This document shows, piece by piece, positions 29,673-58,415 of a stretch of 64,000 nt of DNA. A program made the position numbers and the translations under genes. The stretch is from Candidatus Collierbacteria bacterium (lineage in GTDB: Bacteria; Patescibacteriota; Microgenomatia; UBA1400; JACPES01). A model generated the notes under the pieces. It worked only from the letters and a program-made list of their open reading frames with translations. It searched no databases and was not told the DNA's origin. The stretch covers positions 132 through 64,131 of the forward strand of contig JACRNH010000014.1 in the NCBI GenBank assembly GCA_016219325.1. Reading direction: 5' to 3'. The first letter of the stretch is position 1. Each line of letters opens with the position of its first letter.

Positions 29673-29680
29673 AATACCAA

Positions 29681-33419: not shown

Positions 33420-33424
33420 AAAAT

Positions 33425-33853: not shown

Positions 33854-33860
33854 GTTGCAA

Positions 33861-36800
33861 CTATTTTTTCTTGTTCAATGCTTCCAACCGAATACCAATC
33901 TGTTTAGTCACATTTTCTTTAACTTTGGCAAAGACTGGTTTAGATAAGATTTGAGGCAATCTCCTCTCTAGTTTTATCAATTCTTCTTTTGTTGCTGATT
34001 TAATGGCAATAGACCATAAAGCACCGAAGTCGGTAGCCGTTTCTAATATTGGCTGAACTGGTGTTTTTGCTGCAATCGCTCTCGAAACTAAATCTGCAAA
34101 AATATTGCTGATATAGTCTATCCAGTAAATTTTATCTTCAGTTATAAGACCAGGTCTCCACATCTTTGAGATGAACTGGAGAAACACGGCACTAAAACTC
34201 CTCAGGTCGGAACCAGGCAGAAAGATTTGATTTATCAAATGATAGCTTCTTGCACGAAACTTAAAATCATCCTCTGCGACTATTACATAGAGGTCATCAC
34301 CACTGAAACTTACAAAGGTGTAAAAACATTCCGCGAGTTTACCAATTGCTTTTGAATACATTGTTGGGTCTAACAATCCCTGCTCTCGAATTTTTTGGAT
34401 AATTAACCAAGTATTCAATGGGGTTATAGCCTCTGATTTAAGAAGCCTATATAACCTAAAATCATCTGTGACCATGATCGTCCCCCTCTTTTTAGCGAGG
34501 TTCATCGAATCAATGAGCCAGCTTTCAAAAAGGTCATTTGTCTTTTGCCCTTTCAATTTACCTTTTGGAACGTGCTTTATGATTTTTATAGCAGTGCTAC
34601 TTCTAAGAAAGTTCCACAACCTCCTAAGACTTTCATTTTCTTCTTGCAAAAGCTCATCTTGAATTTTTTGAAAAAGCGAAAAGGAAATCTCCATCTGTGG
34701 GCATATTTTCTCGGTATCATTAAGAAGATTTAACTTTGACAGTGTGAGTAAGGATAGGTAATCAAATACAAAGACCTTATCTTTTGAATAGTTATCTTCT
34801 AGTTCTTTTCTAAACTCAACCGATGGCAGGGTGTACTCAAACGGCATTTCTGGATCTCTGCCAGACCATACGGTTATATACGGCTTCTTAAAAGTATTCT
34901 GCAGGAAGTAGGAGGGAATAGGCTGTTGTACGTATATTTGCTTAATTCTATTCGTCCACTCTCTCCTATCTTGAATCATTTTGATAATTTTTCCCTTATC
35001 CTTTCTATAGTCTATCTTTTGGATAGATTTTAGTTCTGGAAATTTTTCATCGAAAGCTAGCGCTCCCTCTAACAATCTGTCTCCACCTTCCTCGGAGGCA
35101 TACCTTAACATAACTGCCCCATAATGAGATAAAACCATTTGTACAGCAGGACCTTTTGGCAGTTGCTCAGCAAACCCCCTTGCTTTTGAGGCGGCTAATA
35201 TTGCCTTGTTTTTATCTCCTAGTAATACTTCGACAAGGCTTACGTCCAACCAGTACTGAAAATCATGTTTGTTTGTGGCTTCCTCCTCAATTTTTTGAAA
35301 TAGACCCCGAGCTATTTCTGGACAGCCATTATAAAGAAATGCTCGAGCGATTCTTATGGTTTCTTTATAGGAAATTTTGTCAAAATCAGGTAAAGATTGT
35401 AGTAGTGATAACGAAACTTCAAAGTCCCTCTTTCTAAATGCCTCAACTGCTTTCAGGAATTTGTCTCCTAGAGTGGATTCATTGGGTATATCACTAATCG
35501 GTAAAGCCATTCTCTTAAGCTTTTGCTCTCCCAACCATGTCCTAACTACATTTTGAAAGTAAAAAACTTCGTCATAGAACAGTGTTAGCTCCTTCTCTCT
35601 AGCCACAGACATCGCTTCATCAAAGTCTGCCTTCGCTTGGTTTAAATGCGTCTTTTTTTGAAACTCTGGGGCAATGTCTGAATAGCCAACGGAGTACGGT
35701 ACGGCATCTTTCTCAAGAGCTATAGCAAGCATGACGCGTCCTCTTAACAATAGACTTTCAACATCGTGCTTAAGCTTACAAGAAATATCTGCAAACTTAA
35801 AAGCATTATCTAACTGCCCAGCTTCTAGGTAAAAATGCCCTACAGTAAGCGATAAGACGTCATCGGAAGTAAACAGCTGCGAATATTGAACGCCTTTTTC
35901 TATGAAACCAATTACACCAGACACTCCTTCTTTAACTCTGACTAGTTTCAAATACACTTGTAATATCGCGGGGTCCTGATCCCTTCTTGTTTCTACCATC
36001 AGTGGTTGAAGTATCTGTTGTGCTTTATCTAGTTCACTTTTAGCTTCTTGTTCTTGTAGCTTTTGGCTTTTGTTTATGTGAACCGTAGCCAAGTTTTTGA
36101 CAGCAATTATGAAATCTGTATTTGCCTTAACTGCTTTCCTGAAGTACTCAATAGCTTCATCTAATTCATCTTCAATGCTGCAAGCAACTCCTATGTTGTT
36201 GTAGACTTTCGCTAATTCATTCCCAAAGTCAGGTTTATCTTCAATCTTCCCAAGAATTTTGAACAATAGTGTTTTGGCTTCTCCAATACTGCCCCTATCG
36301 AGCAAGTCTTTTGCTATTTTAATCTCTTCGTCTATAACTGATCTCTCTATGCCTTTGCCACTTAGGGCAATTGAGGTGGGTTTTTGTTCGTTTTGAGGAG
36401 TGTAAATCGACAACACATCTTTTTTCTGTTCTAACTGCTTTGCTTTCTTTACATCCTTATCTGTTGGTATTCTTTTTTGTCTTCTCGGTGTCGTTTTCAC
36501 AGAGAAAATCTTTTGTTCCTCTTTTCCTTCAAGACCCTTCTTTATCACTTGCTCTTTCCAAACCCCTAATATTCTTTTTCTCTCTGTAAGAGAAAGTTTG
36601 ATAGTCTCCCCATAAATATCTTTATAAATCTTAGGAAAACAGCCTATGAGGTCTTTAATCTGTTGTCTTACGGTCCAAAGGACAATTCTAAACGGATAAC
36701 TATGCTTCTGGAGGGAACCATCTACTACTTCTCTAAATTCGTTGTCAACAAAGCCGAATGGAGCAAATATACACCAACAATCACTGGGGGTACTGGAAGA

Positions 36801-37085
36801 GTAAAACTGACTAAGTTTGGTGTGTGTTTCGGTTTTTGGGATTAGTGTTTCCTTGCGACTCTCACAACCGTGACTTTTTGACTCTATTGCCCAGGCAAAC
36901 TCAATCTCTTTATCGTCAATTTTTGCAGACCACTTAGATATGTGATCCTTGCCAAATTGCAATCCACCACTTTGTGGATTTAATTCTAAAGGTAGGAATT
37001 TCCATTCTTTCAGAAGACAAGTTAAAAATTCGTGCAGTATTTTTTCATACTTGTCGCCCTTAGGCTTAGAGCCCTGTATTTTCAT
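33861..37085 (-). CDS. Large TPR-repeat protein (1074 aa), hypothetical
   Basis: TPR-like helical repeats in the central region, e.g. VYNNIGVACSIEDELDEAIEYFRKAVKANTDF. The N-terminal ~200 aa and the C-terminal third are unassigned. Confidence 0.65.
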   Translation of the reverse strand: MKIQGSKPKGDKYEKILHEFLTCLLKEWKFLPLELNPQSGGLQFGKDHISKWSAKIDDKEIEFAWAIESKSHGCESRKETLIPKTETHTKLSQFYSSSTPSDCWCIFAPFGFVDNEFREVVDGSLQKHSYPFRIVLWTVRQQIKDLIGCFPKIYKDIYGETIKLSLTERKRILGVWKEQVIKKGLEGKEEQKIFSVKTTPRRQKRIPTDKDVKKAKQLEQKKDVLSIYTPQNEQKPTSIALSGKGIERSVIDEEIKIAKDLLDRGSIGEAKTLLFKILGKIEDKPDFGNELAKVYNNIGVACSIEDELDEAIEYFRKAVKANTDFIIAVKNLATVHINKSQKLQEQEAKSELDKAQQILQPLMVETRRDQDPAILQVYLKLVRVKEGVSGVIGFIEKGVQYSQLFTSDDVLSLTVGHFYLEAGQLDNAFKFADISCKLKHDVESLLLRGRVMLAIALEKDAVPYSVGYSDIAPEFQKKTHLNQAKADFDEAMSVAREKELTLFYDEVFYFQNVVRTWLGEQKLKRMALPISDIPNESTLGDKFLKAVEAFRKRDFEVSLSLLQSLPDFDKISYKETIRIARAFLYNGCPEIARGLFQKIEEEATNKHDFQYWLDVSLVEVLLGDKNKAILAASKARGFAEQLPKGPAVQMVLSHYGAVMLRYASEEGGDRLLEGALAFDEKFPELKSIQKIDYRKDKGKIIKMIQDRREWTNRIKQIYVQQPIPSYFLQNTFKKPYITVWSGRDPEMPFEYTLPSVEFRKELEDNYSKDKVFVFDYLSLLTLSKLNLLNDTEKICPQMEISFSLFQKIQDELLQEENESLRRLWNFLRSSTAIKIIKHVPKGKLKGQKTNDLFESWLIDSMNLAKKRGTIMVTDDFRLYRLLKSEAITPLNTWLIIQKIREQGLLDPTMYSKAIGKLAECFYTFVSFSGDDLYVIVAEDDFKFRARSYHLINQIFLPGSDLRSFSAVFLQFISKMWRPGLITEDKIYWIDYISNIFADLVSRAIAAKTPVQPILETATDFGALWSIAIKSATKEELIKLERRLPQILSKPVFAKVKENVTKQIGIRLEALNKKK

Positions 37086-37107
37086 AGTTATATTGTATCG
37101 AAGCAGC

Positions 37108-37326
37108 TCATCCGTTTATGAGTTTTTGAATATCTTCCAAACGGTAGCGTCTGTCTCCTGTAACATTGGGATTACTCCTTTTAGGGTGTGCCCTCGAACC
37201 AATCCTTATAGCCACCAATCGACTTTCTTTATCCCACCTTCTCAGCGTGGCGGGGTGGACGCTCAAAAGTTTGGCGGCTTCTTTAATTTTTAACAATCTT
37301 GAAATTTTTGTTTTTGTTTCGTCCAT
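37108..37326 (-). CDS. Excisionase/AlpA-like (HTH_17) DNA-binding protein
   Basis: LLKIKEAAKLLSVHPATLRRW...RYRLEDI. Confidence 0.6.
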   Translation of the reverse strand: MDETKTKISRLLKIKEAAKLLSVHPATLRRWDKESRLVAIRIGSRAHPKRSNPNVTGDRRYRLEDIQKLING

Positions 37327-37404
37327 AGTCGACTCGTTTCTTTAGCTTAATTATGTTAAATTATACATTAGCACTGGTTAATTATAAAGACAATCAAGAT
37401 AAAT

Positions 37405-38157
37405 ATGAGTTTTGAACCCATAAGCATAAAGATTGATGACTTAAAACTATTTGCAGACGTAGCTTTTGCAATTGATAGTCCATTTTTCATCAACGAAGCT
37501 GTCAAACTCAGAAAACAATACGGTATCACTGAACCCCTTGGGGGGAGTTCTTATCAAACTTGGGCTGTCGAACACTTAAGCGAGAAGGGTATTAAAATTC
37601 TCTTTAAACAAGTATCTGAAATTCGAGCCCGCATGATACTGACCGCTAATTATCAAGAAGTTTTCGAAAAAGCTGTTTTTGGTTGTGATATTGAAAATGG
37701 AGATTACGAAACAACTATGCTTATCAACTTTCAAAAACTACCCAACTATTTGAGCTATAAGCTACCAATATCTGAAATGTATGCAATTCTTCTTTCACCC
37801 CAAACAAGATATGACGATGTTAAAAACACATTTGCCAGATATGAAAAGCTCATGGCTTCGTTTAGAGAAAAAATAGATACCGTTAACTTGTTTGATAATT
37901 ATAATCAAAGTAAAAGCAACATCAAAACTGTTAGGAAATGGTACTGGATTAGGTACGGGGATGTAGTTTCGAATCGGTCGGAAAAACCAAAAACCTACCC
38001 TGAAATATTAAAGGAGTGGGGGCGTAAATGTCCAAAATGTGAAGAGGGTCATGCGACTGCTGGAGAAAATGCAAGATGCCCCTATTGTCGTATTACAGAC
38101 CAAAATATCCTAGAAAAACTTGTTCCCGAGTATAGAAAAAGGTTAAGACAGCCCTGA
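37405..38157 (+). CDS. Hypothetical protein with a C-terminal Cys4 zinc ribbon
   Basis: CPKCEEGH...CPYCRI motif. Confidence 0.45.
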   Translation: MSFEPISIKIDDLKLFADVAFAIDSPFFINEAVKLRKQYGITEPLGGSSYQTWAVEHLSEKGIKILFKQVSEIRARMILTANYQEVFEKAVFGCDIENGDYETTMLINFQKLPNYLSYKLPISEMYAILLSPQTRYDDVKNTFARYEKLMASFREKIDTVNLFDNYNQSKSNIKTVRKWYWIRYGDVVSNRSEKPKTYPEILKEWGRKCPKCEEGHATAGENARCPYCRITDQNILEKLVPEYRKRLRQP

Positions 38158-38379
38158 CGGTTTTCCTCATCAAATCTTCCGTGACTCTCTTTCTTTAATT
38201 TGTAACCATATGGTTAGACAGATAATTTTGTCTGACTGATATGGGTAATCAAAAAATTAATCAATCTAAAAAGGAAGGCGAGCCTACGCTTGAGGGCATC
38301 GTGGAAGCGTGGGTTAAGTTGTGCCTTTTCCATATCAAAAAAACCAAAGAATTGGTTAATCAATATAAAGATAAAAAAT

Positions 38380-38655
38380 ATGAAAGCAAAACAATATAAC
38401 AAACCAGTATTTTCGACAGACAACTTTGCTTTGGCGGTTTTCCTTAAAACCAAATCGTGCAGGTACCTGCACATTTCAAAAGACAATCCTCGACACGCAA
38501 CATTCCATTTTGAAGATAGCTCCGAAAGAGAAAGGCTAACCGCTGGGTTTTGGCAAGGTACAGCGTTAGTCGAACCCCGTGCTTTTTATAACAACCAGAG
38601 AGAGTTTAAGACATTACTTTACGACAGCAGCTATCCAACCAAAATGACAACCTAA
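38380..38655 (+). CDS. DUF5659-like small protein (phage-associated)
   Basis: Start is probably ATG 38380 (MKAKQYNKPVFSTDNFALAVFLKT...). The ORF track starts at 38290. Confidence 0.4.
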   Translation: MKAKQYNKPVFSTDNFALAVFLKTKSCRYLHISKDNPRHATFHFEDSSERERLTAGFWQGTALVEPRAFYNNQREFKTLLYDSSYPTKMTT

Positions 38656-38683
38656 CTTACTTTGAAAATTTATCAAAATAAAT

Positions 38684-39088
38684 ATGACTGAATTACTAGA
38701 GTTAGCAACCATAAAAATAGATTTAAAAATGCAGGGTAATTTTTTAGCTAAAGTAACACTAAATTGGCGAGATGAGTTTGAAGTACGTTTTTTTCGAATT
38801 CTTCGCTCAAGCACGGGTAAGGCGTGGCTTCAGCCACCCTGCCTGGAAAAATTTGGGTGGGCGAAATGTTTTGGCGTACTTGATCGTGATAACTGGAAAG
38901 AGTTTATGAGCAGGGTAATCGTTCAATTCAAAGAAGAATTAAAGGAAAAGGTTAAAGAAGGCACCTATTCGCCAGCGGTTTTAAGGAAGATAGAAGAAGC
39001 AGAAGACGAAAGCATCGATCTCAATGATATTCCCGATGATCTGGGAGGGGTAAATATTAAACCTATACGCACTTATGAGAACAAATAG
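38684..39088 (+). CDS. Hypothetical protein
   Basis: 134-aa ORF within the element, with an acidic C-terminus. Confidence 0.4.
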   Translation: MTELLELATIKIDLKMQGNFLAKVTLNWRDEFEVRFFRILRSSTGKAWLQPPCLEKFGWAKCFGVLDRDNWKEFMSRVIVQFKEELKEKVKEGTYSPAVLRKIEEAEDESIDLNDIPDDLGGVNIKPIRTYENK

Positions 39089-39178
39089 TAACTATATAGT
39101 TACAAGTGACTATATGTAACTATAAAAGAGGATGGATAACGAAAGGATTGTGCATTGATTGTGCATTGATTGTGCATC
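39088..39178. promoter_or_regulatory. Repeat-rich region upstream of serine recombinase 1
   Basis: Perfect 16-bp palindrome GTAACTATATAGTTAC at 39088-39103, an extra GTAACTATA copy at 39116-39124, and three 11-bp tandem repeats GATTGTGCATT at 39146-39178. Confidence 0.5.
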
Positions 39179-39260
39179 AAAAACTGAATAGAAACACAAT
39201 TTGCTTAATTAAATATAATTAGTTATAATTAAGTTTAATTAACTAATTTTAAGAAACAAA

Positions 39261-40850
39261 ATGAAAAATTGTTTCATCTATATAAGGGTTTCGACCGATA
39301 CGCAGGCAACTGAGGGTTACTCTTTGGACAACCAAAAAAGAGCTTGCAAAGAGTACGCAGTAAACAAGGAGTATCACCCAAAAGAGGTATTTGTTGACGA
39401 TGGAAAATCTGGGAGAACCGCCAATAGGCCTGAATTTCAGGAAATGTTGAAGAAATTGAAGGATAAACAGGCAGAGTGTGTCATCATCTACAAAATTGAC
39501 CGTTTTGCCCGTAATGTAACTGATTTTTCAAGGGTGAGAAAAGAATTCATTGAGGCGGGCATTGATTTTCTTTCAGTTATGGAGGGCGACCTAACCAATG
39601 GATCAAGCCTTATCTCGAACATCTTCGCCTCGGTCGCAGAATGGGAATCGGAAGTTAATAGTACCAGAACAATAGATGCTCTGGAACAAAAATTTCGAGG
39701 CGGTTGGCAGCCCACCCCACCGCCGATAGGTTATATGACAGTCGGAGAAAAGAATGAGAGAAAATCGTGCGAGCCAGACCCCTATACCGCTCCCATAATC
39801 AAAGAATTGTTTGAGCTCTACGCAACTGGCAACTACTCCCTATTGGAACTACAAGACTGGTTAAGTCAAAAAGATATTGTTTCAAAAAGCGGGACCATCA
39901 TTGGTCACTCAGTAATCAACAACATCTTGAGGAACCCTTTCTACTACGGTCTTATCCGTTGGCACGGAGTGTCAAAAATAGGTAAGCAGAAACCTATCCT
40001 CAAAAAGGATCTCTTTGACACCTGCCAATATGTTCTAGCTAAGCATCGAAGTTTTTTAATCAGGAAAAGGAAACACGATTTTCTGTTGCGGGGTTTTATA
40101 TTCTGTGACAATTGCGAACAACGATATACCGCCGAGTGGCATTATGATGCCCACAAGCTAAAAAACAGAGGTGGCAAAATTGGCTATTACCACTGTCAGA
40201 AAAGGGATAGGAATGGTTGTTCCGCTCCATATGTGGAAATTGAAGATTTACAGAAGCAAGTTGAAGATCAATTTAAGAAAATGCAGTTCTCGCAAAAGTT
40301 TATCGAGATGGTAGTCGTTAAGACTAAAGAGGCAATGACTGAAGGACGAAGTTATCTTAATAATCAACGAATGCAATTAGTGAACCGTAAGACATCGCTT
40401 GAAACAAAGCGAAACAAGCTTGAAGATTCGCTTCTTAACGAAGCTGTTGATAAAGATACCTACAAGAGGCTCCACGTCAAGATCCAAGACAAAATATACG
40501 CAATTAATGACAGGATTGAAGAACTTGAAGATAAGGCTAATATCGATACCAATCTAATTGAGGAAGTGCTGTCCTTTACAAGGGATATTTACAATACATA
40601 CAAGCAGTCACCCGCATTTCTTAAACGCCACTATTTACGGTTCTTCTTTGAGAAGCTGTATGTCAATAATTGTAAGATTTCTAAAATTGAACCGACCCCG
40701 ATTTTCGCGATACTACGGGAAAATCAAGAGGTTATAATAACGGATAATCAGCTCAAGAAATGGAATGAGTTTAGGACTCTAAGCCTTCTGGGTGAAGAAA
40801 TAGAATATTCAGAAATCATCATGGAACAAACAAGGGAGTTGCTTTCCTGA
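39261..40850 (+). CDS. Large serine recombinase (resolvase/invertase catalytic domain plus recombinase and zinc-ribbon domains)
   Basis: YIRVSTDTQ catalytic Ser motif with the conserved DRFAR motif, a Cys cluster (CDNCEQRY...CQKRD..GC) and a coiled-coil C-terminus. Confidence 0.9.
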   Translation: MKNCFIYIRVSTDTQATEGYSLDNQKRACKEYAVNKEYHPKEVFVDDGKSGRTANRPEFQEMLKKLKDKQAECVIIYKIDRFARNVTDFSRVRKEFIEAGIDFLSVMEGDLTNGSSLISNIFASVAEWESEVNSTRTIDALEQKFRGGWQPTPPPIGYMTVGEKNERKSCEPDPYTAPIIKELFELYATGNYSLLELQDWLSQKDIVSKSGTIIGHSVINNILRNPFYYGLIRWHGVSKIGKQKPILKKDLFDTCQYVLAKHRSFLIRKRKHDFLLRGFIFCDNCEQRYTAEWHYDAHKLKNRGGKIGYYHCQKRDRNGCSAPYVEIEDLQKQVEDQFKKMQFSQKFIEMVVVKTKEAMTEGRSYLNNQRMQLVNRKTSLETKRNKLEDSLLNEAVDKDTYKRLHVKIQDKIYAINDRIEELEDKANIDTNLIEEVLSFTRDIYNTYKQSPAFLKRHYLRFFFEKLYVNNCKISKIEPTPIFAILRENQEVIITDNQLKKWNEFRTLSLLGEEIEYSEIIMEQTRELLS

Positions 40851-40853
40851 TGA

Positions 40854-41600
40854 TTATTTAGAAACTTCTATAAAGCAATTTGTATCTAACTTACATCTAT
40901 ATCGGATTTCCATTTTTAGTATCTGATTGGGCAATTTGGTTGTAGAAACGAATCCTCCAATAAAATATTGACGTTTTTTATTTGTCTTATAAGAAAGGTC
41001 TTTGTCTAGAAATTCTTCAGTAATATTTACTTCTTTTTTCTTTGGTTCTAATGGAAATGGCAACTGTCCTAATGGTAATTTGGTCATGTCATATAAAAAT
41101 TCTGAAGCAGAGCTAGAAACTAGACTTTCAGAATTTACTAGGTGTCCCTGTTTGCTATGGCCATTAACAATGAAAAAATAAACAGACTCATTTTTGACAT
41201 CTATGGCACCCGTCTTTATATAAAGATATGCTTCAGACAGATCCCCTTGGATATTGATTTCTACGCTATTTCGCTCTAAATAATCTCTTAATCAGTCGGG
41301 GTTTGTAATAAAAGCTGGAGTCATCAACGGTTTGTCTTCGCTAGAGATTGTTGCGACCTTAAATCGTGATGTCTGGATTAAGAGGTCTACTTGTTCTCCC
41401 TTTTTCTTCTCTATACCTTCTGTCGTAACATCGGGGACCACCACCCCTTCTTCTTTTTCTTTAGGAGTAATCCTGGAGATCGCAACAGGAAAAATCGTTG
41501 TAAATACCGATGCCAAAAATACGAGAAGAATACCCGTTAGAATTAGATCCCATTGGATTTTGCCATTTCCGCTAACTTGATTTACTGTCATTTTCAACAA
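40854..41600 (-). pseudogene. Membrane-anchored protein gene interrupted by a single in-frame TGA
   Basis: ORFs 41292-41600 and 40854-41087 are in the same frame. The 204 nt between them has no stop codons, and the only interruption is the TGA at 41292-41294. Confidence 0.4.
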
Positions 41601-41949
41601 TTGATTTTATCTTAGCAGGACTTAATATTAGCAGAAATAATGAAATGTATCCATAAGTTAATGTCCATGCGGATAATGATTCCTTATTGAGGTATGGGAA
41701 TAGTCTCCTATAAAATAAGACGCCGATAACCCCAAAAGCTACTTCCGGCATTCCCTGTCTGTATATATTGCCAACAGTGTTTCAATAATTAACTTCAATG
41801 AAGTCCGTAAACCTAGCTCCGATAAGAAACAATATAAATCCTGAAAAGATTACTATATAGAGCTGAGAGTAAGACACAAAAGCTTTTGGGTTTCCCCAAA
41901 GTGAAGCTTTTCCGATAGCTCTTATAAAATTAGTCTTCATCAAGTTTAA

Positions 41950-42528
41950 TTATTCTTCCTTTATTTCGTCTAATTTTTCTCCAATTTCGTAGATAAAATA
42001 TAATAGTGCTTCAATGAATTTTAGAATTCCTGTCGCCTCTTCTTGTTCTCCAATTTTAATTTCATGGTTTTTCTCGTTCCCTATATTTTTCAAGTATTCT
42101 AACAATCTCCCTGCATTAGGTGGAATGTAGTTGGACGAGGCAAGATGTTTTATGTAATCTTTGAATGACTCTCCTTCTTTTGCTTGAGCAACATCAACAG
42201 CAATATGCATGATTAGTTTACGACCGAGCAATATAGCTGCTGTGTAACAATCGTTTTTCATTGACTCTCTTATTTCGTAATAAATCCTTTCTATGCCTAT
42301 TGGTAAATTTAGAATCGTTTTTCCCAGCATCGGACCAGGATACTGCATCTGGCTATAGAAGAAAGTAGGCCTTCCACAGTTGGTACAAATATAAATCCTG
42401 GCGCTGAAATTTTTATGAAAATATCCTTTATCTGATCCAACTTTATCCCCACAGAATCCGCAGACATAACTTTGAGGATTTAACTGCAAAAGCCCCTGCC
42501 AATCTGGCCAGCCGATATTGAACTCCAT
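41950..42528 (-). CDS. DUF4145-like protein with an N-terminal Cys4 zinc finger
   Basis: CGFCGDKV...CTNCGRP, then a helical C-terminal domain. Confidence 0.45.
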   Translation of the reverse strand: MEFNIGWPDWQGLLQLNPQSYVCGFCGDKVGSDKGYFHKNFSARIYICTNCGRPTFFYSQMQYPGPMLGKTILNLPIGIERIYYEIRESMKNDCYTAAILLGRKLIMHIAVDVAQAKEGESFKDYIKHLASSNYIPPNAGRLLEYLKNIGNEKNHEIKIGEQEEATGILKFIEALLYFIYEIGEKLDEIKEE

Positions 42529-42601
42529 AACTTGGCTATTATCTCACAAATTCTGATAATCTCATCACTGTAATTTTCAATTTTTGTGGTCTAAACTAAG
42601 G

Positions 42602-42835
42602 TTACAGAAAATCTCGTAGTTTTACTTTCAATACTTTTGCTATTTTATAGAGGCCGCGTAACGAAATATTGCTTTCACCCCTCTCAATCCGTCCGTAGGT
42701 GGTCCAGTGGATACCAAGTCTATCAGCAATTTCCTCTTGGGTTAGGCCTTTTACTTTTCTAACCCTTTTCATCCTTCTGCCAACTAGATTGGAAATTTTA
42801 TAGCGCTTCATGCTATCTTTGAACATAGACAGCAT
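42602..42835 (-). CDS. XRE-family HTH transcriptional regulator
   Basis: LTQEEIADRLGIHWTTYGRIERGESNISLRGLYKIAKVL. Confidence 0.7.
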   Translation of the reverse strand: MLSMFKDSMKRYKISNLVGRRMKRVRKVKGLTQEEIADRLGIHWTTYGRIERGESNISLRGLYKIAKVLKVKLRDFL

Positions 42836-42917
42836 TTTGCAATTACTCCATAGCGTCTGACGCTTTATTTGGCTTGACTTTAGATTGAAAATTTGTTAGT
42901 CTCCTCTCCGAGATGAT

Positions 42918-43448
42918 ATGGAACTAAAAAAATATATGAAAATCTTAAAAATTGGCTGTATTTCTTTCTTTGTAATCGCATTGATAACAGTTATTCTTTC
43001 GTTTAACTATGGGAAGTATGAAAACGAACCAAAGAGAGAAACCAAACAGACTCAAGCTGTTGACGCTCAAGTCGTAATCCCCACGACCGCCTTTCCGATT
43101 TATGAAAAACTAAGCCATGAGAAATCAGAAACTACCGAAAACTTTTCTTTTCTAGTTAAAGTTGAAGATAAATCAGCCAAGAATTTAAAGCGATTGGCAC
43201 TAGAAATCAAGAGTAAAGAATGTAAAATGTCCTGTAATATCAGCTTGTTTGATGATAGACGAGCGGCGGAACTTGACGGTGAGTACAAGAGACTGAATAC
43301 CATAGAAGAACAAAACGGTTGGAAGGAGAGAAACTATATTTATGTGGCCGATCACTTAGCAGGATTTCTGGAATTTAGTAGCGAAACATTTTCTTACTAT
43401 CCGTATAGAGACTGGTATTACGAAGAGTTGAAAGCAAAACAACAATGA
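42918..43448 (+). CDS. Membrane-anchored or secreted hypothetical protein
   Basis: N-terminal TM, 176 aa. Confidence 0.4.
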   Translation: MELKKYMKILKIGCISFFVIALITVILSFNYGKYENEPKRETKQTQAVDAQVVIPTTAFPIYEKLSHEKSETTENFSFLVKVEDKSAKNLKRLALEIKSKECKMSCNISLFDDRRAAELDGEYKRLNTIEEQNGWKERNYIYVADHLAGFLEFSSETFSYYPYRDWYYEELKAKQQ

Positions 43449-43804
43449 AAAAAAACATTATTGTAGGTATTCTGATTGCCGCTATTAGCGGAGTTATTGC
43501 TTCGCTAACCACACTGAAGATTAGCGGTGTCAAATGGCAGAAAGAACAGCAGGCAAATCTTGATTCCTCGGCGTTGCCTATTATTGCGTCGGAAGGCGGT
43601 ATTGATGATAGCCAGGAAATCTCTACTAATCTAGTTCAGACTCGGTACGTTACTGGACCAGGAAGCGACGGTTACTGGGCGTTGTATTGCCTCTATCCCA
43701 AAGACGAATTTGGATTTTCTACCCGGTGGGCGGTACTTAAGGCAAAAGGCGAAGGGTGTCCGGCAGATTACACCTCTGTTCAACTTTGGGGAAAGAAGAA
43801 TTAA
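43445..43804 (+). CDS. Secreted hypothetical protein
   Basis: Signal-like N-terminus and a 4-bp overlap with the upstream gene. Confidence 0.4.
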   Translation: MKKNIIVGILIAAISGVIASLTTLKISGVKWQKEQQANLDSSALPIIASEGGIDDSQEISTNLVQTRYVTGPGSDGYWALYCLYPKDEFGFSTRWAVLKAKGEGCPADYTSVQLWGKKN

Positions 43805-43812
43805 ACGCTTGT

Positions 43813-44259
43813 CTAAATGTTTGTTTGGCAACTTTGTATTTTTTGGTGAATAGTCCGAACTATATTCTTGAAGGAAAGCGAGTTGTCAGTAGTCGGTGTG
43901 TTATTCAGCAACAATCCATTGGCTATCTTTCGGTCAAAGCAGTTGAGCTGTGAGGCGAAAACTACTTGTAGGGCCATTAGACGATGTCTGGGGTTCAATC
44001 TTTCATTATTAGCAATTTCTGCTCCGATTCGGCTGACCCAGTTCGCTACATCTTCAAGTACTGCCATTTCTTCTGTAATAAAACGGTCTTTAAATCTGTT
44101 TAATCGCTCGCCCCTTACCTTCCTTAGGCGTTTAGCGATGAAATTCTTGTCATGATTTAAAAGTTGAGCCAGCGATCTGACTGACGCCTTAGGATTCTGC
44201 ATGAGGCATTGTTGAATTTGGGAATCTATCTCGCGGATGTAAACAGAACTTAACTTCAT
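43813..44259 (-). CDS. Hypothetical protein (possible DNA-binding)
   Basis: 148-aa ORF. The overlapping + strand ORF was rejected. Confidence 0.35.
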   Translation of the reverse strand: MKLSSVYIREIDSQIQQCLMQNPKASVRSLAQLLNHDKNFIAKRLRKVRGERLNRFKDRFITEEMAVLEDVANWVSRIGAEIANNERLNPRHRLMALQVVFASQLNCFDRKIANGLLLNNTPTTDNSLSFKNIVRTIHQKIQSCQTNI

Positions 44260-44300
44260 GTATGTTATTGTACGTTAATAATCAAAATATCTAAATCAAT

Positions 44301-44918
44301 ATGGCGTTTGATCAAATAAAAATCAAAATCTCTAATAAGCGAAGATTTGAGTCAGTATCAACTCTGGTTGATAGAACAGACTTTGAAGAATTGGTTGTTT
44401 TTTTACGGAACAAGATTGGCCTTACTAACAAACTTATTCCATATGAACACTTTGATCAATTCTATAAATCACTTGATTACCACCTTAATTCAGAAGAACT
44501 TTCAGAATATAACCAAATGATTGATGAAATGGAACTCCTAGAAAATAGGAATCAAAAAACACCTGAGGAAGCAAAAACCTACTCCATTTTACGGCAAGAA
44601 ATTAGGAGATGGCAAAATCCCAAGCATAACTTTCTTACCCGCTTAGACAAATACCTATCTGATCACAAAATTGCTTCTGGATATAAAACAGTAGTAATAA
44701 AAGCGATTGTCTGTGGGGAAATTAAAGAAAACGACTTCACACTGAGTGTGGTTTCTAAAGGACTTAGAAATATAGACCGAGATAGAAGATGGTACTGGGT
44801 AAACCGCCGATTGTCTGGGGCAAAGAGGATGGGGTACATGAAAATTGCAAAAAGGCATAAAGAATATCTAAGAACAGTTGAAAACGCCATAAAGACCTAC
44901 GCATCAAGATTAACTTAA
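44301..44918 (+). CDS. Hypothetical protein
   Basis: 205-aa ORF, basic C-terminus. Confidence 0.4.
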   Translation: MAFDQIKIKISNKRRFESVSTLVDRTDFEELVVFLRNKIGLTNKLIPYEHFDQFYKSLDYHLNSEELSEYNQMIDEMELLENRNQKTPEEAKTYSILRQEIRRWQNPKHNFLTRLDKYLSDHKIASGYKTVVIKAIVCGEIKENDFTLSVVSKGLRNIDRDRRWYWVNRRLSGAKRMGYMKIAKRHKEYLRTVENAIKTYASRLT

Positions 44919-44987
44919 CCTCTAGGGGTATCTAAAGTAAGGTTGGGAAATTTTAAAATTGTTTTTCATCGGGGAAAATAACCCCAA

Positions 44988-45239
44988 ATGGAAAATAAGA
45001 ATCATCTATATAAATCAGATTCGCTTCATTTAGCAGCATTTCTCATAGCTAAAGGGTGTGAGTTGGCAGAGGTTGAAAGACTCTCTGATGACAGTAGAAA
45101 GCTGTTATTTTGTTTTCCCGATACTAACAAGCTTCAGAATTTATTAAGTGAATTTTTCGCCCTCCGAGCTAAAGTTAGGCCTCAAGACTTTGCTAATGCC
45201 CAAAGGACATTGAAGACAATTATTTTTGCTCAAAAATAA
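44988..45239 (+). CDS. Hypothetical small protein
   Basis: 83-aa ORF. Confidence 0.3.
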   Translation: MENKNHLYKSDSLHLAAFLIAKGCELAEVERLSDDSRKLLFCFPDTNKLQNLLSEFFALRAKVRPQDFANAQRTLKTIIFAQK

Positions 45240-45799
45240 TTGGGGCGAAATGATAAATAAACAGCTAATTAAGGAACTAAAAACGATATTGAATGACGAG
45301 TTCGGGATCAATGAAAAGGATGGTGTTGTTGCTGAAGTAGCTAACTATCTCATCAATATGTTTGAAGTTCTAATTGAAGTAAAAACTGAGATAAAAACCA
45401 AGAATAACCCCGCTTTCTGTTCCGGCGCGATACTTAATGTGTGTATTGCTCAAACACTGTAGGCAAGATGAATATTGCTATCCTGGCCAAAGAACCATTG
45501 CCGATACTCTTGGTTATAGTCCTAGATACATCAGGAATCTTGTTTCAGAGCTGGAAAGCCAACATCTGGTTTCTAAAAAACGGAGAGGCTTTAATAAAAC
45601 AAATACCTATAGAGTAATCAAAGACTTGACACTTGATGGGAACTCTACTTCCCCTCACTTAAGAACTAAGTATCCGCTCAATCAAGGAAACCAGTTTCCG
45701 ACTAATATAAATTATAGAATAGGAAAAAGTAATATAAAAGGAATGAAATCTTTAAGAGAAGCATTAATCAAAATCGGGGTTAAACAAAAAATTGACTAG
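45226..45799 (+). CDS. HTH_36-type helix-turn-helix protein (phage replication/initiator-like), possibly frameshifted between ORFs 45226-45462 and 45437-45799
   Basis: The second ORF carries CYPGQRTIADTLGYSPRYIRNLVSELESQHLV. The first ends with NPAFCSGAILNVCIAQTL. They overlap out of frame. Confidence 0.4.
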
Positions 45800-45823
45800 C
45801 CGTGTTTAGCGAAAAACCAATAT

Positions 45824-47467
45824 TTGTTACTATGCGAGCCTAAGGATAAACAATATATGAAGGCTGTACTACTTTGCAGGGTATCAAGTAAGGAACAAGG
45901 AGAGTCTGGTTACTCACTTCCGGCACAGGAAAAACTCCTCAGTAGTTATACGACCGGAAAAGGCTTCAAAATAGCCAGGGTGTTTTCTATATCAGAATCA
46001 GCAAGCGGCAAGAAACAAAGGGAAGTATTTAACTCAATGATAGCCTACGTAAAAGAAAACGACATTAAGGTTATTATCATTGAGAAGGCAGATAGGTTTA
46101 CCAGAAATTTCAAGGACTCAGTTGCTTTGTATGAGTGGTTAAATGAAGATGAAGAAAGACAACTCCACTCAGTAAAAGATTCTCTTATCCTTCATAAAAA
46201 TTCACGGTCTCAGGAAAAACTAAACTGGGACATCAGAATCGTTTTTGCTAAGAACTACATAGATAACCTATCCGAAGAGGTTAAGAAGGGCCAAAAAGAG
46301 AAATTATCTCAAGGGTGGCTACCAACGAAACCACCACTGGGATATAAGACGGTCGGGGTTCAAGGCCATAAGATTCACATTATTGACGAAGAAATTGCTC
46401 CCTTGGTCAAGAAAATGTTTGAGCTATATGCTACCGGCGACTACTCTATTAAACGGTTGGTTAAAGTGATGAATGCCAATGGCCTAAGAAACAAGCTAGG
46501 AAGGAAATTAGTCGGCAGCAGAATTCATCAACTCCTGACCGATCCTTTCTATGTTGGGAAAAACCGTTGGCTAGGGAATTTATATGATGGGAAGCAGGAT
46601 ACTTTTATCAGCAGAGAAATATTTGATAGGGTCCAACAGCTTCTAAAAAGCAAATCGGCACCAAGAGTTCGTATCCATGATTTCTTATTCCGAGGCCTTT
46701 GCCGATGCGCTCGCTGTGAAGGAATGATTACATGGGAGACCCACAAAGGCATCATCTACGGCCATTGCAATATTTACTATCACCAATGTACGGCTCGCAA
46801 ATGGGCAACAGAGGCAATTGTTGAATCACAATTAACTGATGTATTTGAGAAACTACAGATCCGCAACCAGCGGCTTTTGGAATGGGTTAGAAAAGCACTT
46901 AAGGAGAGCCATCAGGATGAAGTCGTCTATAGAACATCATCTTTGAATGAGCTTAACGAGTATCAAAAACAGATTAGGCGGCGGCTGGATCGCTTGTATG
47001 ACGATAAGATTGACGGCAAGATCACGGAAGAATTTTATCAGCGAAAATATCGCCAATATTCAGATGAGCTGGATGATGCAAGCCGAAAAATCAAAGGCCA
47101 TGATGTGGCTAACCTCAAATACATGGAGTTAGGAATCAATCTTTTTGAATTATCGCAACAAGCCAAGGATATTTATCTTAATGCGGGTATTGAGCGAAAG
47201 CGAAAGCTGCTCCGCCTTTTCTTCAGCCGATTAATGCTTGATGAGAAAAAGCTAACCTATAACTTCACCAAGCCCTATGAAATTCTTTCCCAAGCCGTAG
47301 ATGTTACCAATAGTTCTAAACTGGTAAAAGTTGAAGAAAAGTCGGACAGAATTATAGAACATAAAATAATGATTGATGATTCAGAACAAATAGGTGATTT
47401 ACAACATCTTCGTTCTATCGTGCTCCCCCGGCTGGACTCGAACCAGCGACATCCTCGTTACAGGTAA
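45824..47467 (+). CDS. Large serine recombinase 2. The annotated 3' end runs antisense across the tRNA-Asn 3' exon.
   Basis: LLCRVSSKEQ catalytic Ser motif, a recombinase domain and Cys clusters. The last ~15 codons (PRLDSNQRHPRYR) are the antisense translation of the tRNA exon. Confidence 0.85.
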   Translation: MLLCEPKDKQYMKAVLLCRVSSKEQGESGYSLPAQEKLLSSYTTGKGFKIARVFSISESASGKKQREVFNSMIAYVKENDIKVIIIEKADRFTRNFKDSVALYEWLNEDEERQLHSVKDSLILHKNSRSQEKLNWDIRIVFAKNYIDNLSEEVKKGQKEKLSQGWLPTKPPLGYKTVGVQGHKIHIIDEEIAPLVKKMFELYATGDYSIKRLVKVMNANGLRNKLGRKLVGSRIHQLLTDPFYVGKNRWLGNLYDGKQDTFISREIFDRVQQLLKSKSAPRVRIHDFLFRGLCRCARCEGMITWETHKGIIYGHCNIYYHQCTARKWATEAIVESQLTDVFEKLQIRNQRLLEWVRKALKESHQDEVVYRTSSLNELNEYQKQIRRRLDRLYDDKIDGKITEEFYQRKYRQYSDELDDASRKIKGHDVANLKYMELGINLFELSQQAKDIYLNAGIERKRKLLRLFFSRLMLDEKKLTYNFTKPYEILSQAVDVTNSSKLVKVEEKSDRIIEHKIMIDDSEQIGDLQHLRSIVLPRLDSNQRHPRYR

Positions 47468-47980
47468 TCCACTACTTTCGTAGAAGCTTGGACTATATCT
47501 TTGCCATGCTCAAATGAGTTTAGGCACTTTGGTATTTAGTCTCTACGGCGTCCCGCAAAAAATGTGGGTTCCCACGGTGTTACCGCTTAAATCGTAAAAG
47601 GCTTCACCGTTATCCCAAAGAGTTCATCCCTAAGTTTCCTTAGGAAGCTGCGTTTTGCCTGCGTGTATCTCTCTATGGCAATTTGCGCATACCAAAACGC
47701 ACTTGTCTATTTCTTTCTTAATCTTTTCCCATGATCGCGTAAGGCCGCGAACCGAAAGCCCAAAATCTTTTTGTTTCGGATCTCTATGGTGAAAATCAAG
47801 GGCATCTTGACAGCGCTGATATCCACAAATGACGCATTTCCCGCCTTTGTATTCACGAGCCATTTCTCGAAGGCGTTTTCGCCTTTCTGAAACAGCTCTC
47901 TTTAAATACTCGGAACGGTCGGCATAAGTCCTTGTATCTGGCATATACATCTGAGTATACCAAACTTATGACTTAATTCC
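47461..47980 (-). ncRNA. Group I intron in the tRNA-Asn anticodon loop
   Basis: The 5' exon ends in U and the intron ends in G. The 3' portion on the gene strand carries AGACUAAAU and AGAUAUAGUCC, matching the J6/7-P7 and P7' core strings of group I introns. The ORF lies in the 5' part. Confidence 0.65.
47630..47950 (-). CDS. HNH homing endonuclease encoded within the group I intron
   Basis: CVICGY...DFHHRDPKQKD...CANCHREIH, an HNH motif with Zn-binding cysteines. Confidence 0.7.
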   Translation of the reverse strand: MYMPDTRTYADRSEYLKRAVSERRKRLREMAREYKGGKCVICGYQRCQDALDFHHRDPKQKDFGLSVRGLTRSWEKIKKEIDKCVLVCANCHREIHAGKTQLPKET

Positions 47981-48095
47981 ACAGCGAGGCGCTCTACCAA
48001 CTGAGCTACAGGGGAATGTCAATGTACAAGTCAGATTATATCAGGCAATAAATCCTGTCCGCCTGAATTTTTAATCAGAATGTTACAATTTTACG

Positions 48096-48728
48096 ATGTC
48101 GCAAACATTGCTTTTGACTTCAGCCGGAATGCGGATACAGGATGAAATTTTAAAACTTCTGCCAAAACCTCCGGCAGAAATTAAACTTGCCCACATAATT
48201 ACGGCTTCAAATGAAGTTAACCCGCACCCTTGGAGAGATAACGACAAAAAAGCCATGCTTAAATTAGGAATTCAGGTTGAAGATATTGACGTTAAGGGAA
48301 AAACCGAAAATGAGTTAAGACGAATCTTGAAAAATAAAAATGTAATTTATGTTCAAGGTGGAAGCCCATATTATCTTTTAAGATATGTTATTGAAAGCGG
48401 ATTTGACAAAGTGGCAAAAGATTTAATAGACAAAGGAGCAATATATATCGGGGCCAGCGCCGGCTCGTATATAACCTGTCCGACAATTGAACAGGCCTTA
48501 TGGAAAAAACCGAACAGAAATACGTACGGTCTGGCAGACAACGGACCAGCGATGGATCTCGTCCCATTTTTAATCGTCGCCCACTATGAACCAAAATTCG
48601 CAGAAAGTGTGATCGCCGGAATCAACAAAACCAAATATCCGGTTAAAGTGCTGACAGATGATCAGGCGATTTTAGTGAAAGATGGGATAATGAAGCTTAT
48701 GGAGATAAAACATGTCCGAAGAAAGTAA
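48096..48728 (+). CDS. Peptidase S51 (dipeptidase E/cyanophycinase-like) family protein
   Basis: VIYVQGGSPYYLL and IYIGASAGSYI (Ser nucleophile motif). Confidence 0.6.
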   Translation: MSQTLLLTSAGMRIQDEILKLLPKPPAEIKLAHIITASNEVNPHPWRDNDKKAMLKLGIQVEDIDVKGKTENELRRILKNKNVIYVQGGSPYYLLRYVIESGFDKVAKDLIDKGAIYIGASAGSYITCPTIEQALWKKPNRNTYGLADNGPAMDLVPFLIVAHYEPKFAESVIAGINKTKYPVKVLTDDQAILVKDGIMKLMEIKHVRRK

Positions 48729-54504: not shown

Positions 54505-55623
54505 CTACCCCAAATAATCCTGTAATTTTTTTCTCTTGCTCGGGTGTTTTAATTTTCGCAATGCCTTAGCCTCTATTTGCCTGATTCTTTCTCTGGTTAC
54601 CCCGAATTCCCGGCCGACTTCTTCCAGGGTCAACGGCCGTTGGCCGTCGAGGCCAAAACGCAGCCTTAAGACTTTGTTTTCCCTTTCCGACAACATTCCC
54701 AACACTTCTTCCACGTTTTCTTTTAACAATTGCTTGCTGGTAGCGTCATACGGAGAAAGTTGCGATTCGTCCGGAATAAAATCTCCCAAAAAGCTGTCTT
54801 CTTCATCGCCAATCGGAGTTTCCAGAGAGGTGGTTTTTTGGGCGATTTTCAAAACCTCGCGGACTTTGATCGCGGTCATTTCTTCCATTTCTGCCGCGAC
54901 TTCTTCCGGCTCGGGCTCCCGGCCTAATTTTTGTAAAAGCTGGCGGCTGGTGCGGATGACTTTATTAATCGTTTCCACCATATGGACTGGAATCCTGATG
55001 GTCCGGGCCTGATCGGCAATCGCCCGGGTAATTGCCTGCCTGATCCACCAAGTGGCATAGGTGGAAAACTTATAGCCCTTTTTCCAATCGTATTTCTCCA
55101 CCGCCCGGATCAAACCCTTATTGCCTTCCTGAATCAAATCCAAAAATGACAAGCCGCGGCCGATGTATTTTTTGGCAATGGAGACCACCAGCCGCAAATT
55201 GGCTTTAGTCAGCATGGCTTTGGCCTTCAGATCGCCCTTTTCATATCTCTGGGCCAGATCAATTTCCTGCTCTCTGATCAAAAGCGGAATCCGGCCGATT
55301 TCCTTTAAATACATCCTAACCGGATCGGAACTACCTAATTTGCTGATCTCTTCAAACGATTCCAATTCTTTGGTCAAATCGGTGGAAGCGCTTTTCTCCA
55401 GAGCCCTTTGATCTTCGGCGAAGGTATCAAAGACGTCAATTTTCTCTTGAAATAGCTTGCCGAAAAAAGCGTCCAGATCGTCCAAATGCTTCTCCGCTTC
55501 CGGCAAAATTTCCATGATCTGATCAACGGTAACGAAGCCATCACTTTTACCCTGTTTCCTTAACCGCAGCATGGCTCTTTTCTGTTCCGGAGCCAGAGGC
55601 AGATTCTTTTTAGTCTTCGCCAT
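54505..55623 (-). CDS. rpoD: RNA polymerase primary sigma factor (sigma-70)
   Basis: Regions 1.2 to 4 present, including [18 protein letters not shown]...[20 protein letters not shown] and region 4 [27 protein letters not shown]. Confidence 0.92.
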
Positions 55624-57596: not shown

Positions 57597-57902
57597 ATGA
57601 ATTACATCGCTTCCATTACCAGCCAGGGTCAAATTACAATCCCGAAACCGCTAAGGGATCAATTTGGTATTCTGGGCCAAGCCAAAGCGCATCTGGTTAA
57701 AAAGGGCGACAAAATTGAGCTAAAGCTCTATACGCCACATGATCTTGAATTTTGGTATGGAGCGCTAAAAAACAATCCTATAGTGAAAGCAAATAAAGGT
57801 AAACCGCTACAGCAAATTATTGAAGAAGAAAGCGCGGCTTTTGAAAAAGCTATCGCTGATAATGTGGCCGAAGAAATGGGATTGCCGCCGCTAAAAGAAT
57901 AA
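57597..57902 (+). CDS. vapB: AbrB/SpoVT-domain antitoxin (VapB/MazE-like)
   Basis: ITSQGQITIPKPLRDQFGI motif. Immediately upstream of the PIN gene. Confidence 0.7.
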   Translation: MNYIASITSQGQITIPKPLRDQFGILGQAKAHLVKKGDKIELKLYTPHDLEFWYGALKNNPIVKANKGKPLQQIIEEESAAFEKAIADNVAEEMGLPPLKE

Positions 57903-58329: not shown

Positions 58330-58415
58330 GGAGGAGTGTGCCGAATGGTAAGGCACCGCTCTCGAAAAGCGGCGGGCGCAAGCCCTTGCAGGTTCGATTC
58401 CTGTCTCCTCCGCCA
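58330..58415 (+). tRNA. tRNA-Ser(CGA), class II with a long variable arm
   Basis: GGAGGAG/CTCCTCC acceptor stem, 3-bp D-stem, CUCGAAA anticodon loop, GGGC-GCAA-GCCC variable arm, TTCGATT T-loop, and an encoded CCA. Confidence 0.85.

Follow-up and report, generated by a model that had tools for sequence, protein, structure and literature searches.

Group I introns that interrupt tRNA genes between anticodon positions 35 and 36 have been described from Patescibacteria by Nakagawa et al. (mSystems 2026, PMC13011429; preprint of July 2025, 10.1101/2025.07.03.662931), and the locus analysed here is very probably of this kind: a chromosomal tRNA-Asn(GUU) gene of a Microgenomates-like Patescibacterium, in which a self-splicing group I intron with an HNH homing endonuclease gene (HEG) separates U35 from U36. 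It lies on the minus strand of a 64-kb stretch of contig JACRNH010000014.1, the whole of which we call the window and whose coordinates we use throughout. That study covered 95 complete genomes of Patescibacteria, in which 15 tRNA-Asn(GUU) and three tRNA-Asp genes were found split at 35/36 by group I introns; tRNA-Asn is the commonest intron-bearing tRNA in Patescibacteria, insertions at 35/36 are enriched in the phylum, and endonucleases of the HNH type (PF01844) are encoded in four of the tRNA-Asn introns. Two 35/36 introns, one from tRNA-Asn and one from tRNA-Asp and neither stated to carry a HEG, are reported there to splice precisely in vitro in dependence on GTP, an activity lost when the terminal G is changed to C. 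Standard tools miss these tRNAs or mis-assign them. Of 28 introns at 35/36, 25 were classed as subgroup IA, so that IA is typical and not required, and none of the Patescibacterial tRNA introns was assigned to IC. Since 35/36 tRNA-Asn introns with HNH genes are thus already on record, we regard the window intron as another member of a described class, and the view taken in a preliminary description of the locus, made from the sequence alone, that Asn would be an unusual host for such an intron mirrors older literature and does not hold for this phylum (Nakagawa et al., 2026). Our literature search for 'group I intron' together with 'tRNA-Asn' returned organelle papers only; it was a query on Patescibacteria that brought the study to light.

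The tRNA introns of subgroup IC3, as in tRNA-Leu(UAA) of cyanobacteria and plastids and tRNA-Ile of Azoarcus, have a compact core without the hairpins P7.1 and P7.2. We take the window intron to resemble them in its P7 and J8/7 strings (AGACUA...GAUAUAGUCC) and in exons presumably held together by the anticodon stem; the classical IC3 introns differ from it in being inserted at 34/35 or 33/34 and in having no open reading frame (ORF). Phages offer the familiar case of self-splicing group I introns that contain an HNH-type nuclease, I-HmuI of Bacillus phage SPO1 being encoded in this way; the phage introns, however, interrupt protein-coding genes, whereas the host here is a cellular tRNA and the protein, at 104 aa, is much smaller. 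The introns of cyanobacterial tRNA-fMet (33/34) and tRNA-Arg (36/37) share with ours the setting of a bacterial tRNA anticodon loop and the presence of a HEG, but sit in other tRNAs at other positions and encode PD-(D/E)XK (PF11645) and LAGLIDADG (PF03161) enzymes, respectively, in line with the tendency of introns in the same tRNA to share a HEG family (Nakagawa et al., 2026). Two further precedents are ORFs that overlap group I core sequences (PMC3984707, Fig. 2b), to which the extension of the present ORF into ribozyme core elements can be likened, and 'collaborative homing', in which a free-standing endonuclease and an ORF-less intron share the same target (PMC3984707). Closest by far are the Patescibacterial 35/36 tRNA-Asn introns themselves, with which the window intron shares the phylum, the tRNA, the site, the splice rule (a U before, a G at the end), the HEG family PF01844 and the failure of annotation; the difference is that those are nearly all IA, while the window copy has no P7.1/P7.2 (Nakagawa et al., 2026).

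The gene is assembled from two pieces on either side of the intron:

47981 to 48015, minus strand: tRNA-Asn 5' exon, comprising the 5' strand of the acceptor stem, the D-arm, the 5' strand of the anticodon stem and the loop bases C32, U33, G34 and U35 (ARAGORN with introns; hidden Markov model (HMM) of exon 1, E = 1.6e-9).
47461 to 47980, minus strand: group I intron of 520 nt between anticodon positions 35 and 36 (Rfam local search, ARAGORN, covariation).
47422 to 47460, minus strand: tRNA-Asn 3' exon, comprising U36, A37 and A38, the 3' strand of the anticodon stem, the variable loop, the T-arm, the 3' strand of the acceptor stem and the discriminator G (ARAGORN; exon-2 HMM, E = 1.7e-8).
48035 to 48043, minus strand: extended -10-like box TGATATAAT, 19 nt before the tRNA 5' end, candidate promoter for the pre-tRNA (read directly).

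Read directly, the exons are TCCCCTGTAGCTCAGTTGGTAGAGCGCCTCGCTGT (48015-47981) and TAACGAGGATGTCGCTGGTTCGAGTCCAGCCGGGGGAGC (47460-47422), and the intron (47980-47461) is preceded by U and has G as its last base, just as the preliminary description had it. That description had also joined two minus-strand pieces into a tRNA-Asn(GUU) and placed the insertion between positions 35 and 36. ARAGORN with intron search agrees on both counts, returning a tRNA-Asn(gtt) whose 74 nt form a perfect cloverleaf and whose 520-nt intron lies at 35-36 ('gctgt-Intron-taacg'), with the 3' exon given as 47460-47422, and the P1 pairing described below fixes the same insertion point. The tRNA body has U1-A72 and G73, and CCA is not encoded in the genome. 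When joined, the exons are identical at 58 of 74 positions (78%) to an uninterrupted Patescibacterial tRNA-Asn found in L054 (L-numbers denote the best 80 loci among the relatives of the HNH protein, hereafter the related loci), and the differences fall mostly at stem positions. This identity and the recurrence of the same exon-intron-HNH layout in 69 of the 80 related loci put the split tRNA-Asn, on comparative grounds, far beyond chance.

The intron ends in ...CCUG, which makes it arithmetically possible to move the boundary by two bases and read CU|...CC|UGUAA, that is, a tRNA-Thr(UGU) with an intron at 33/34. At about half of the related intronic loci ARAGORN indeed reports 'tRNA-Thr (tgt) i(33,...)', and Nakagawa et al. 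(2026) document the identical ambiguity. Here, we consider it to have next to no chance of being correct: the intron would then end in C and not in G, against the group I rule, and P1 requires the exon to end at U35, so that terminal G and P1 together settle the choice between 33/34 and 35/36; U1-A72, G73 and the 78% identity to an intronless tRNA-Asn likewise speak for Asn, as does ARAGORN itself at this locus, and the spliced products of two relatives, when sequenced, showed the 35/36 junction (Nakagawa et al., 2026). The identity of the gene as tRNA-Asn(GUU) is therefore retained in what follows.

With default settings ARAGORN misses this tRNA, as does Rfam at its gathering threshold, and the sole tRNA detected in the window is a tRNA-Ser at 58330-58415. 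Because the tRNA-Asn is invisible to default annotation, the genome would be scored as lacking it and as less complete than it really is, a point already made by Nakagawa et al. (2026). HMMs built from the exons of relatives match only 48015-47981 and 47460-47422 in the whole window, from which it follows that no second, intact tRNA-Asn is present there. As to transcription, 19 of 79 related loci have a motif of the TGATATAAT class ahead of exon 1, compared with 2% of random 60-mers, and this extended -10 box is the element on which the putative pre-tRNA promoter rests; a scan of 47200-48200 for -35/-10 promoters and terminators gave nothing relevant.

The intron folds into a complete group I structure, whose elements are as follows:

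47652 to 47980, minus strand: L1, the loop of P1, 329 nt, containing the HNH gene (comparison with the HEG-less L066, L043, L056 and L037).
47647 to 47651, minus strand: internal guide sequence GCAGC (intron nt 330-334), which pairs with exon GCUGU to form P1, with a G.U wobble at the 5' splice site (read directly).
47629 to 47644, minus strand: P2 hairpin CCUAAG-GAAA-CUUAGG, with the HNH stop codon UAG in its 3' strand (6 of 6 pairs with compensatory changes; 97% of cells paired).
47469 to 47620, minus strand: catalytic core, without P7.1/P7.2 (Rfam alignment and covariation), within which J8/7 is AAGAUA (Rfam alignment).
47620-47615 with 47532-47527, minus strand: P3, CUUUGG/CCAAAG (this and the following helices from checked coordinates).
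47610-47605 with 47579-47574, minus strand: P4, ACGGUG/CACCGU.
47602-47600 with 47584-47582, minus strand: P5.
47573-47572 with 47548-47547, minus strand: P6.
47541-47537 with 47495-47491, minus strand: P7, GACUA/UAGUC.
47526-47523 with 47505-47502, minus strand: P8, UGCC/GGCA.
47486-47480 with 47475-47469, minus strand: P9, CUUCUAC/GUAGUGG, with a GAAA loop.
47461, minus strand: terminal G (omega-G) at the 3' splice site, after the tail AUUACCU (read directly, ARAGORN).

All helices from P2 to P9 could be located, the P3/P7 pseudoknot is present, and the intron carries the conserved strings AGACTAAAT and AGATATAGTCC, which had been pointed out before as matches to the P7 region. In the HEG-less introns of L066, L043, L056 and L037, GCAGC lies only 6-9 nt after the splice site, and it is found at the equivalent place in relatives; P1 is therefore GCUGU/GCAGC and the ORF an insertion into L1. 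Asn-type junctions fitted to the related loci always show the flanks CUGU| and |UAA with a terminal G, where the G itself was a search criterion, so that its constancy speaks to compatibility alone. We tested covariation on an alignment of 12 related cores, comprising 42 pairs in eight helices, against controls with slid 3' partners and 500 shuffles. In the true register 85.8% of the cells are paired, compared with 30-46% when the 3' partners are slid; changes on both sides occur in 26 of the 42 pairs, P7 being invariant, and none of the 500 shuffles matches the observed covariation score. Local search with the Rfam model RF00028 (Intron_gpI) yields a match at 47690-47469 on the minus strand over the full model length, with 44.7 bits and E = 4.5e-10. 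The group I class assigned by the preliminary description thus stands on this match, the complete fold and the covariation, although the part of the Rfam check that concerns the gathering threshold did not turn out positive. Other weak matches of the local Rfam search (LOOT, YrlA, HPnc0260 and MEG8, E = 0.1-6.5) overlap the intron core or the T-arm and were set aside as chance or partial-structure matches; that to the LOOT RNA motif (47451-47526, minus strand, sub-threshold at 21.5 bits, E = 0.11) covers P8 to P9 and probably reflects shared hairpin and GAAA-loop features.

The HNH protein is encoded in L1, within the intron, and two features describe its gene:

47630 to 47944, minus strand: HNH endonuclease ORF, 104 aa from the conserved start ATG-CCA (family alignment; modal length of homologues).
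47954 to 47962, minus strand: extended -10-like box TGGTATACT, putative promoter of the HNH gene itself, 9 nt before the conserved ATG (family conservation).

The ORF had been reported as an HNH gene of 106 aa, which is indeed its length when counted from the first ATG (47950-47630); its identity is firm, while the start is most likely the second ATG, at 47944, judging from the family alignment. The motif series CVIC...HH...N...CANCH...H is complete, with both CxxC pairs and the H...N...H residues in place (read directly). PHROG HNH-endonuclease profiles match with E = 9e-32 and 1.6e-28, the best profile matches being phage HNH families, NCBIfam gives no match, and among solved structures the nearest is 6me0, a group II intron maturase, through its HNH domain (E = 2e-5). 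An exact look-up of the protein sequence retrieved no record. Homologues number more than 2000 at E up to 1e-3, and the best 120 listed are 70-92% identical. In comparisons with 25 relatives, the proportion of differing nonsynonymous sites (pN) is 0.11-0.21 and that of synonymous sites (pS) 0.62-0.94, the latter saturated; the resulting ratio of substitution rates (dN/dS) of about 0.05-0.1 places the gene under strong purifying selection.

Gene and ribozyme are interlocked. The last codons of the ORF, T-Q-L-P-K-E-T-stop, are at the same time the guide sequence and P2, with GCAGC encoding the Gln of the C-terminal tail, and a tail of the form xGxxQ[L/P] is present in 60 of 60 intronic homologues; in free-standing copies, by comparison, Q occurs at that site in one of 11 (L056) and Q[L/P] in none. 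As read from these alignments, the ORF is no separate insert: it takes up the P1 loop and continues across the guide sequence and P2. Neither the position of the ORF in L1 nor the overlap with the guide sequence was seen in the accessible text of Nakagawa et al. (2026). Under a strict pattern, 39 of 60 family members, intronic and free-standing copies alike, have the TGGTATACT box at this spacing, and the gene has no Shine-Dalgarno sequence. This suggests that the HNH gene has its own promoter and a leaderless or near-leaderless mRNA started inside the intron; a transcript so initiated does not include the 5' exon, and therefore could not undergo complete splicing.

The observations that weigh against a functional intron of this kind are several. 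The RF00028 score lies under the gathering score of 50, so that a whole-window search at that threshold finds nothing, and the closest structural relatives, L018, L052 and L066, fall below it as well; Pfam HNH (PF01844) scores 19.8 bits, under its cut-off of 21.4; P3, P6a and P8 contain some unpaired cells in the covariation alignment; no P10 joining the 3' exon to the bases that precede the guide sequence can be drawn in the window intron or in the HEG-less L066; the core is without the P7.1/P7.2 hairpins seen in most relatives; and the window covers only 64 kb of the genome, elsewhere in which an intact second tRNA-Asn is possible. Taken at their strongest, the slightly sub-threshold Rfam and Pfam scores and the 64-kb limit of the inspected portion would fit a decaying or inactive copy, whose intron no longer splices while a functional tRNA-Asn resides elsewhere. 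We nevertheless judge such decay very unlikely, because no defect is seen in any core helix, in the guide sequence, in the U.G pair or at the terminal G, the ORF is full-length with all its catalytic and zinc-binding residues in a family under strong purifying selection, and a low Rfam score is common to a structural sub-class with good covariation; of 18 intron-containing relatives tested, 15 reach the gathering score, at 51-88 bits, the other three being L018, L052 and L066. Moreover, intron-bearing and intronless copies of one anticodon rarely occur in the same genome (Nakagawa et al., 2026). The exons of an active intron would presumably be held together by the 5-bp anticodon stem.

We accordingly prefer the reading of an intron predicted to be self-splicing, for which the following course would account for the observed anatomy. 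Transcription of the pre-tRNA would probably start from the TGATATAAT box; GCUGU, the five nucleotides that close the exon, would pair with GCAGC 330 nt downstream into P1, where the U.G wobble marks the splice site, and P3 to P9 would fold into the catalytic core. An exogenous guanosine would then cleave after U35, the terminal G at 47461 would take its place, and ligation of the exons would restore the loop CUGUUAA and with it tRNA-Asn(GUU), to which CCA, absent from the gene, would be added afterwards. If the HNH protein, which would be translated from a start of its own, acts like other HNH enzymes encoded in introns, it would cut an intronless tRNA-Asn near the insertion site, whereupon the intron would be copied in (homing).

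What sets the window intron apart is its core. P7 and P3' are only 4 nt apart, and P7 to P7' measures 46 nt, compared with 65-120 nt in the majority of relatives. That majority carries a further pair of hairpins after P7 and before P3', in the place of P7.1/P7.2 of subgroup IA introns; the pair is missing from the window intron and, of the 71 related loci for which a junction was fitted, from 11; in this minority P7-P7' spans 35-57 nt, compared with 64-207 nt elsewhere. Judged by this spacing, the core of the window intron departs from the subgroup IA architecture. One HNH gene with one guide sequence is thus seen with two core architectures at the same site, one with P7.1/P7.2-like hairpins (L001, L002 and most loci) and one without (window, 47461-47541), which from sequence comparison points to either a loss of the hairpins or an exchange of the ORF-bearing 5' part among introns. 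In terms of the described class, the window adds a HEG-bearing example from a Microgenomates-like lineage with a core variant devoid of P7.1/P7.2.

Relatives of the HNH protein are encoded in 364 species-representative genomes. Among the best 80 loci, 1) 69 have the HNH gene inside a 35/36 intron of tRNA-Asn, in the order exon-HNH-core-exon, 2) six (L037, L040, L046, L056, L063 and L066; about 1500-2150) have it free-standing directly upstream of a tRNA-Asn with an ORF-less 35/36 intron, 3) two (L011 and L043) have it on the other strand beside a tRNA-Asn with an ORF-less intron, 4) one (L054, 1501-1969) has it upstream of an intronless tRNA-Asn, and 5) two show no tRNA-Asn within the flank. 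The free-standing copies carry the same TGGTATACT box. By its sequence distribution, the family suggests that the four cases known from complete genomes greatly understate how common HEG-bearing tRNA-Asn introns are, and a gene found in 364 species genomes and intronic in 69 of the best 80 loci weakens the inference of little autonomous mobility drawn by Nakagawa et al. (2026). That the HEG is present in some related introns and absent from others is compatible with mobility and is no proof of it. A term search of the main text of that paper found no mention of free-standing HEG copies, and where 'promoter' was met in it, the word stands for the T7 promoter of the in vitro constructs (Nakagawa et al., 2026).

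The conservation of the HNH gene also raises the question of what it does. With 62-92% identity between members from many classes of Patescibacteria, and with its synonymous sites saturated, it is unusually well conserved for a selfish gene and comparable in this to RpoD (about 70% identical outside the genus); free-standing copies adjoin tRNA-Asn genes with ORF-less introns, and in L054 the gene adjoins an intronless tRNA-Asn, which is the expected target of a homing enzyme. It could accordingly be no homing endonuclease, or not exclusively one, but a long-retained partner of tRNA-Asn, for instance as a splicing aid or in the protection or maintenance of the locus, a role that would be compatible with a self-splicing intron. 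We hold this to be unlikely, if the least so of the alternatives weighed here, since the protein is a minimal HNH nuclease in which Pfam, PHROG and structure-relative searches recognised no RNA-binding or maturase domain, and repeated homing between lineages would likewise keep the gene intact. Furthermore, relatives that we take to be HEG-less splice in vitro without protein (Nakagawa et al., 2026), and collaborative homing (PMC3984707) already accounts for endonucleases that stand free next to ORF-less introns. The likeness to the latter applies to L037, L040, L046, L056, L063 and L066, where the cleavage specificity would be shared by analogy; it does not extend to the window, where the HEG sits inside the intron. 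A homing endonuclease thus remains the preferred function of the HNH protein.

On the 3' side, the tRNA gene is met by a recombinase gene on the opposite strand, which is not part of the intron:

45824 to 47467, plus strand: large serine recombinase gene, convergent on the tRNA (Pfam PF00239 Resolvase, PF07508 Recombinase and PF13408 Zn_ribbon_recom).

The protein combines resolvase, recombinase and zinc-ribbon domains and matches the PHROG integrase family phrog_95 with E = 2e-70. Its frame runs antisense across the entire tRNA 3' exon and stops 7 nt into the intron, so that the tail ...VLPRLDSNQRHPRYR is what the acceptor stem, T-arm and anticodon stem encode when read in reverse. A large serine recombinase converges on the tRNA from the corresponding position in no fewer than 15 of the 56 related loci with enough flank (L003, L010, L018, L026, L036, L037, L039, L040, L044, L057, L061, L062, L070, L072 and L073), with a frame that always ends inside the tRNA and tails mostly in one frame (WLPR, LLRG, ...DSN...); no other protein family recurs downstream of the tRNA in these 56 loci. 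The window contains a second serine recombinase at 39261-40850 on the plus strand, 62% identical to the tRNA-adjacent one of L040, and from about 29 to 47.4 kb the GC content drops to 35-39%, compared with 41-45%, and orphan ORFs are many. From its composition, the region of about 29000-47420 looks like two tandem integrated modules beside the tRNA. The ORFs at 37405-38157 and 44301-44918, each a few genes upstream of one recombinase, are similar by eye, and an ORF resembling helix-turn-helix proteins or replication initiators (45437-45799) adjoins the tRNA-adjacent recombinase.

The recurrent arrangement suggests, from gene order and frame, that serine-integrase elements use the 3' half of tRNA-Asn as their attachment site. 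A search of the window for a second copy or remnant of the tRNA 3' half found none with up to three mismatches, and blastn-short returned chance-level 9-14-mers only; a candidate attachment-site remnant downstream of the second recombinase was rejected, as its local alignment was no better than that of random window segments (fractions 0.47 and 0.05). Among contigs with a 96%-identical RpoD, which are syntenic and stop about 1.5 kb short of the tRNA, no empty integration site was found. Single-protein scans of viral contigs, which might hold the excised attP form, found no recombinase homologues, and a profile scan of them retrieved one IMG/VR contig (L085), which carries a 46%-identical recombinase but itself ends inside a tRNA 3' end and is uninformative on attP. 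With neither a remnant repeat nor an empty site, the attachment-site idea stays a lead. A literature search for serine recombinases that integrate at tRNAs in Patescibacteria returned nothing relevant.

Two observations on the related loci touch the same 3' end. The metagenome contigs of L006, L012, L013, L015, L023, L029, L058, L059 and L078 end at the 3' end of tRNA-Asn or a few dozen bases from it, which is consistent with strain-variable insertions that break assemblies. In L008 (2198-2216), L020 (2244-2262) and L024 (2222-2239), the last 19 nt of the 3' exon have weak second matches 130-180 nt downstream of the gene (E = 0.002-0.08), which may be attachment-site duplicates of integrated or excised elements.

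The overlap of the recombinase ORF with the tRNA 3' exon, the lower GC content (35-39%) and many orphan ORFs of 29-47.4 kb, and the recombinases beside this tRNA in at least 15 related loci could also be taken to mean that the intron-bearing tRNA-Asn is itself cargo of the adjacent element and no chromosomal gene. We find this improbable: on its other side the tRNA is within a few kb of YqeY, rpoD and dnaG, in synteny with a close relative; about 40 of the 56 related loci with enough flank have no recombinase beside the tRNA; and the tRNA lies at the edge of the island, as an attachment site should. RpoD (54505-55623) is 96% identical to a protein of a 'Patescibacteria group bacterium', followed among named matches by Beckwith-, Chisholm- and Woesebacteria and the Microgenomates group. 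This identity and the presence of dnaG and rpoD at 6-9 kb from the tRNA, with yqeY included at 5-10 kb and all three syntenic with the close relative, place the locus on a Patescibacterial chromosome, and the host is, by sequence affinity, a Microgenomates-like Patescibacterium.

More tentatively, and with the odds rather against it, the Patescibacterial tRNA-Asn gene could be a long-lived meeting point of three genetic elements, namely the HNH gene, the two ribozyme cores and the serine integrases. On this view the locus may have kept the HNH gene as a partner since ancient times, instead of hosting it as a short-lived parasite, and its arrangements may form a graded series, from free-standing by an intronless tRNA-Asn, through free-standing by an ORF-less intron, to residence in L1 fused in frame to the guide sequence; if true, this series would be a natural record of a homing endonuclease gene invading an intron. 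The serine integrases, in turn, may attach at the 3' half of the same tRNA gene, with their own frames ending inside it. None of these elements of the idea is described in the accessible text of Nakagawa et al. (2026). The free-standing HNH copies and the integrase association merit a dedicated study, though they are not properties of the window intron itself.

Elsewhere in the window, a PIN-domain protein (57904-58308) follows a small ORF (57597-57902), the two being likely a toxin-antitoxin pair, directly upstream of the tRNA-Ser(CGA) at 58330-58415.

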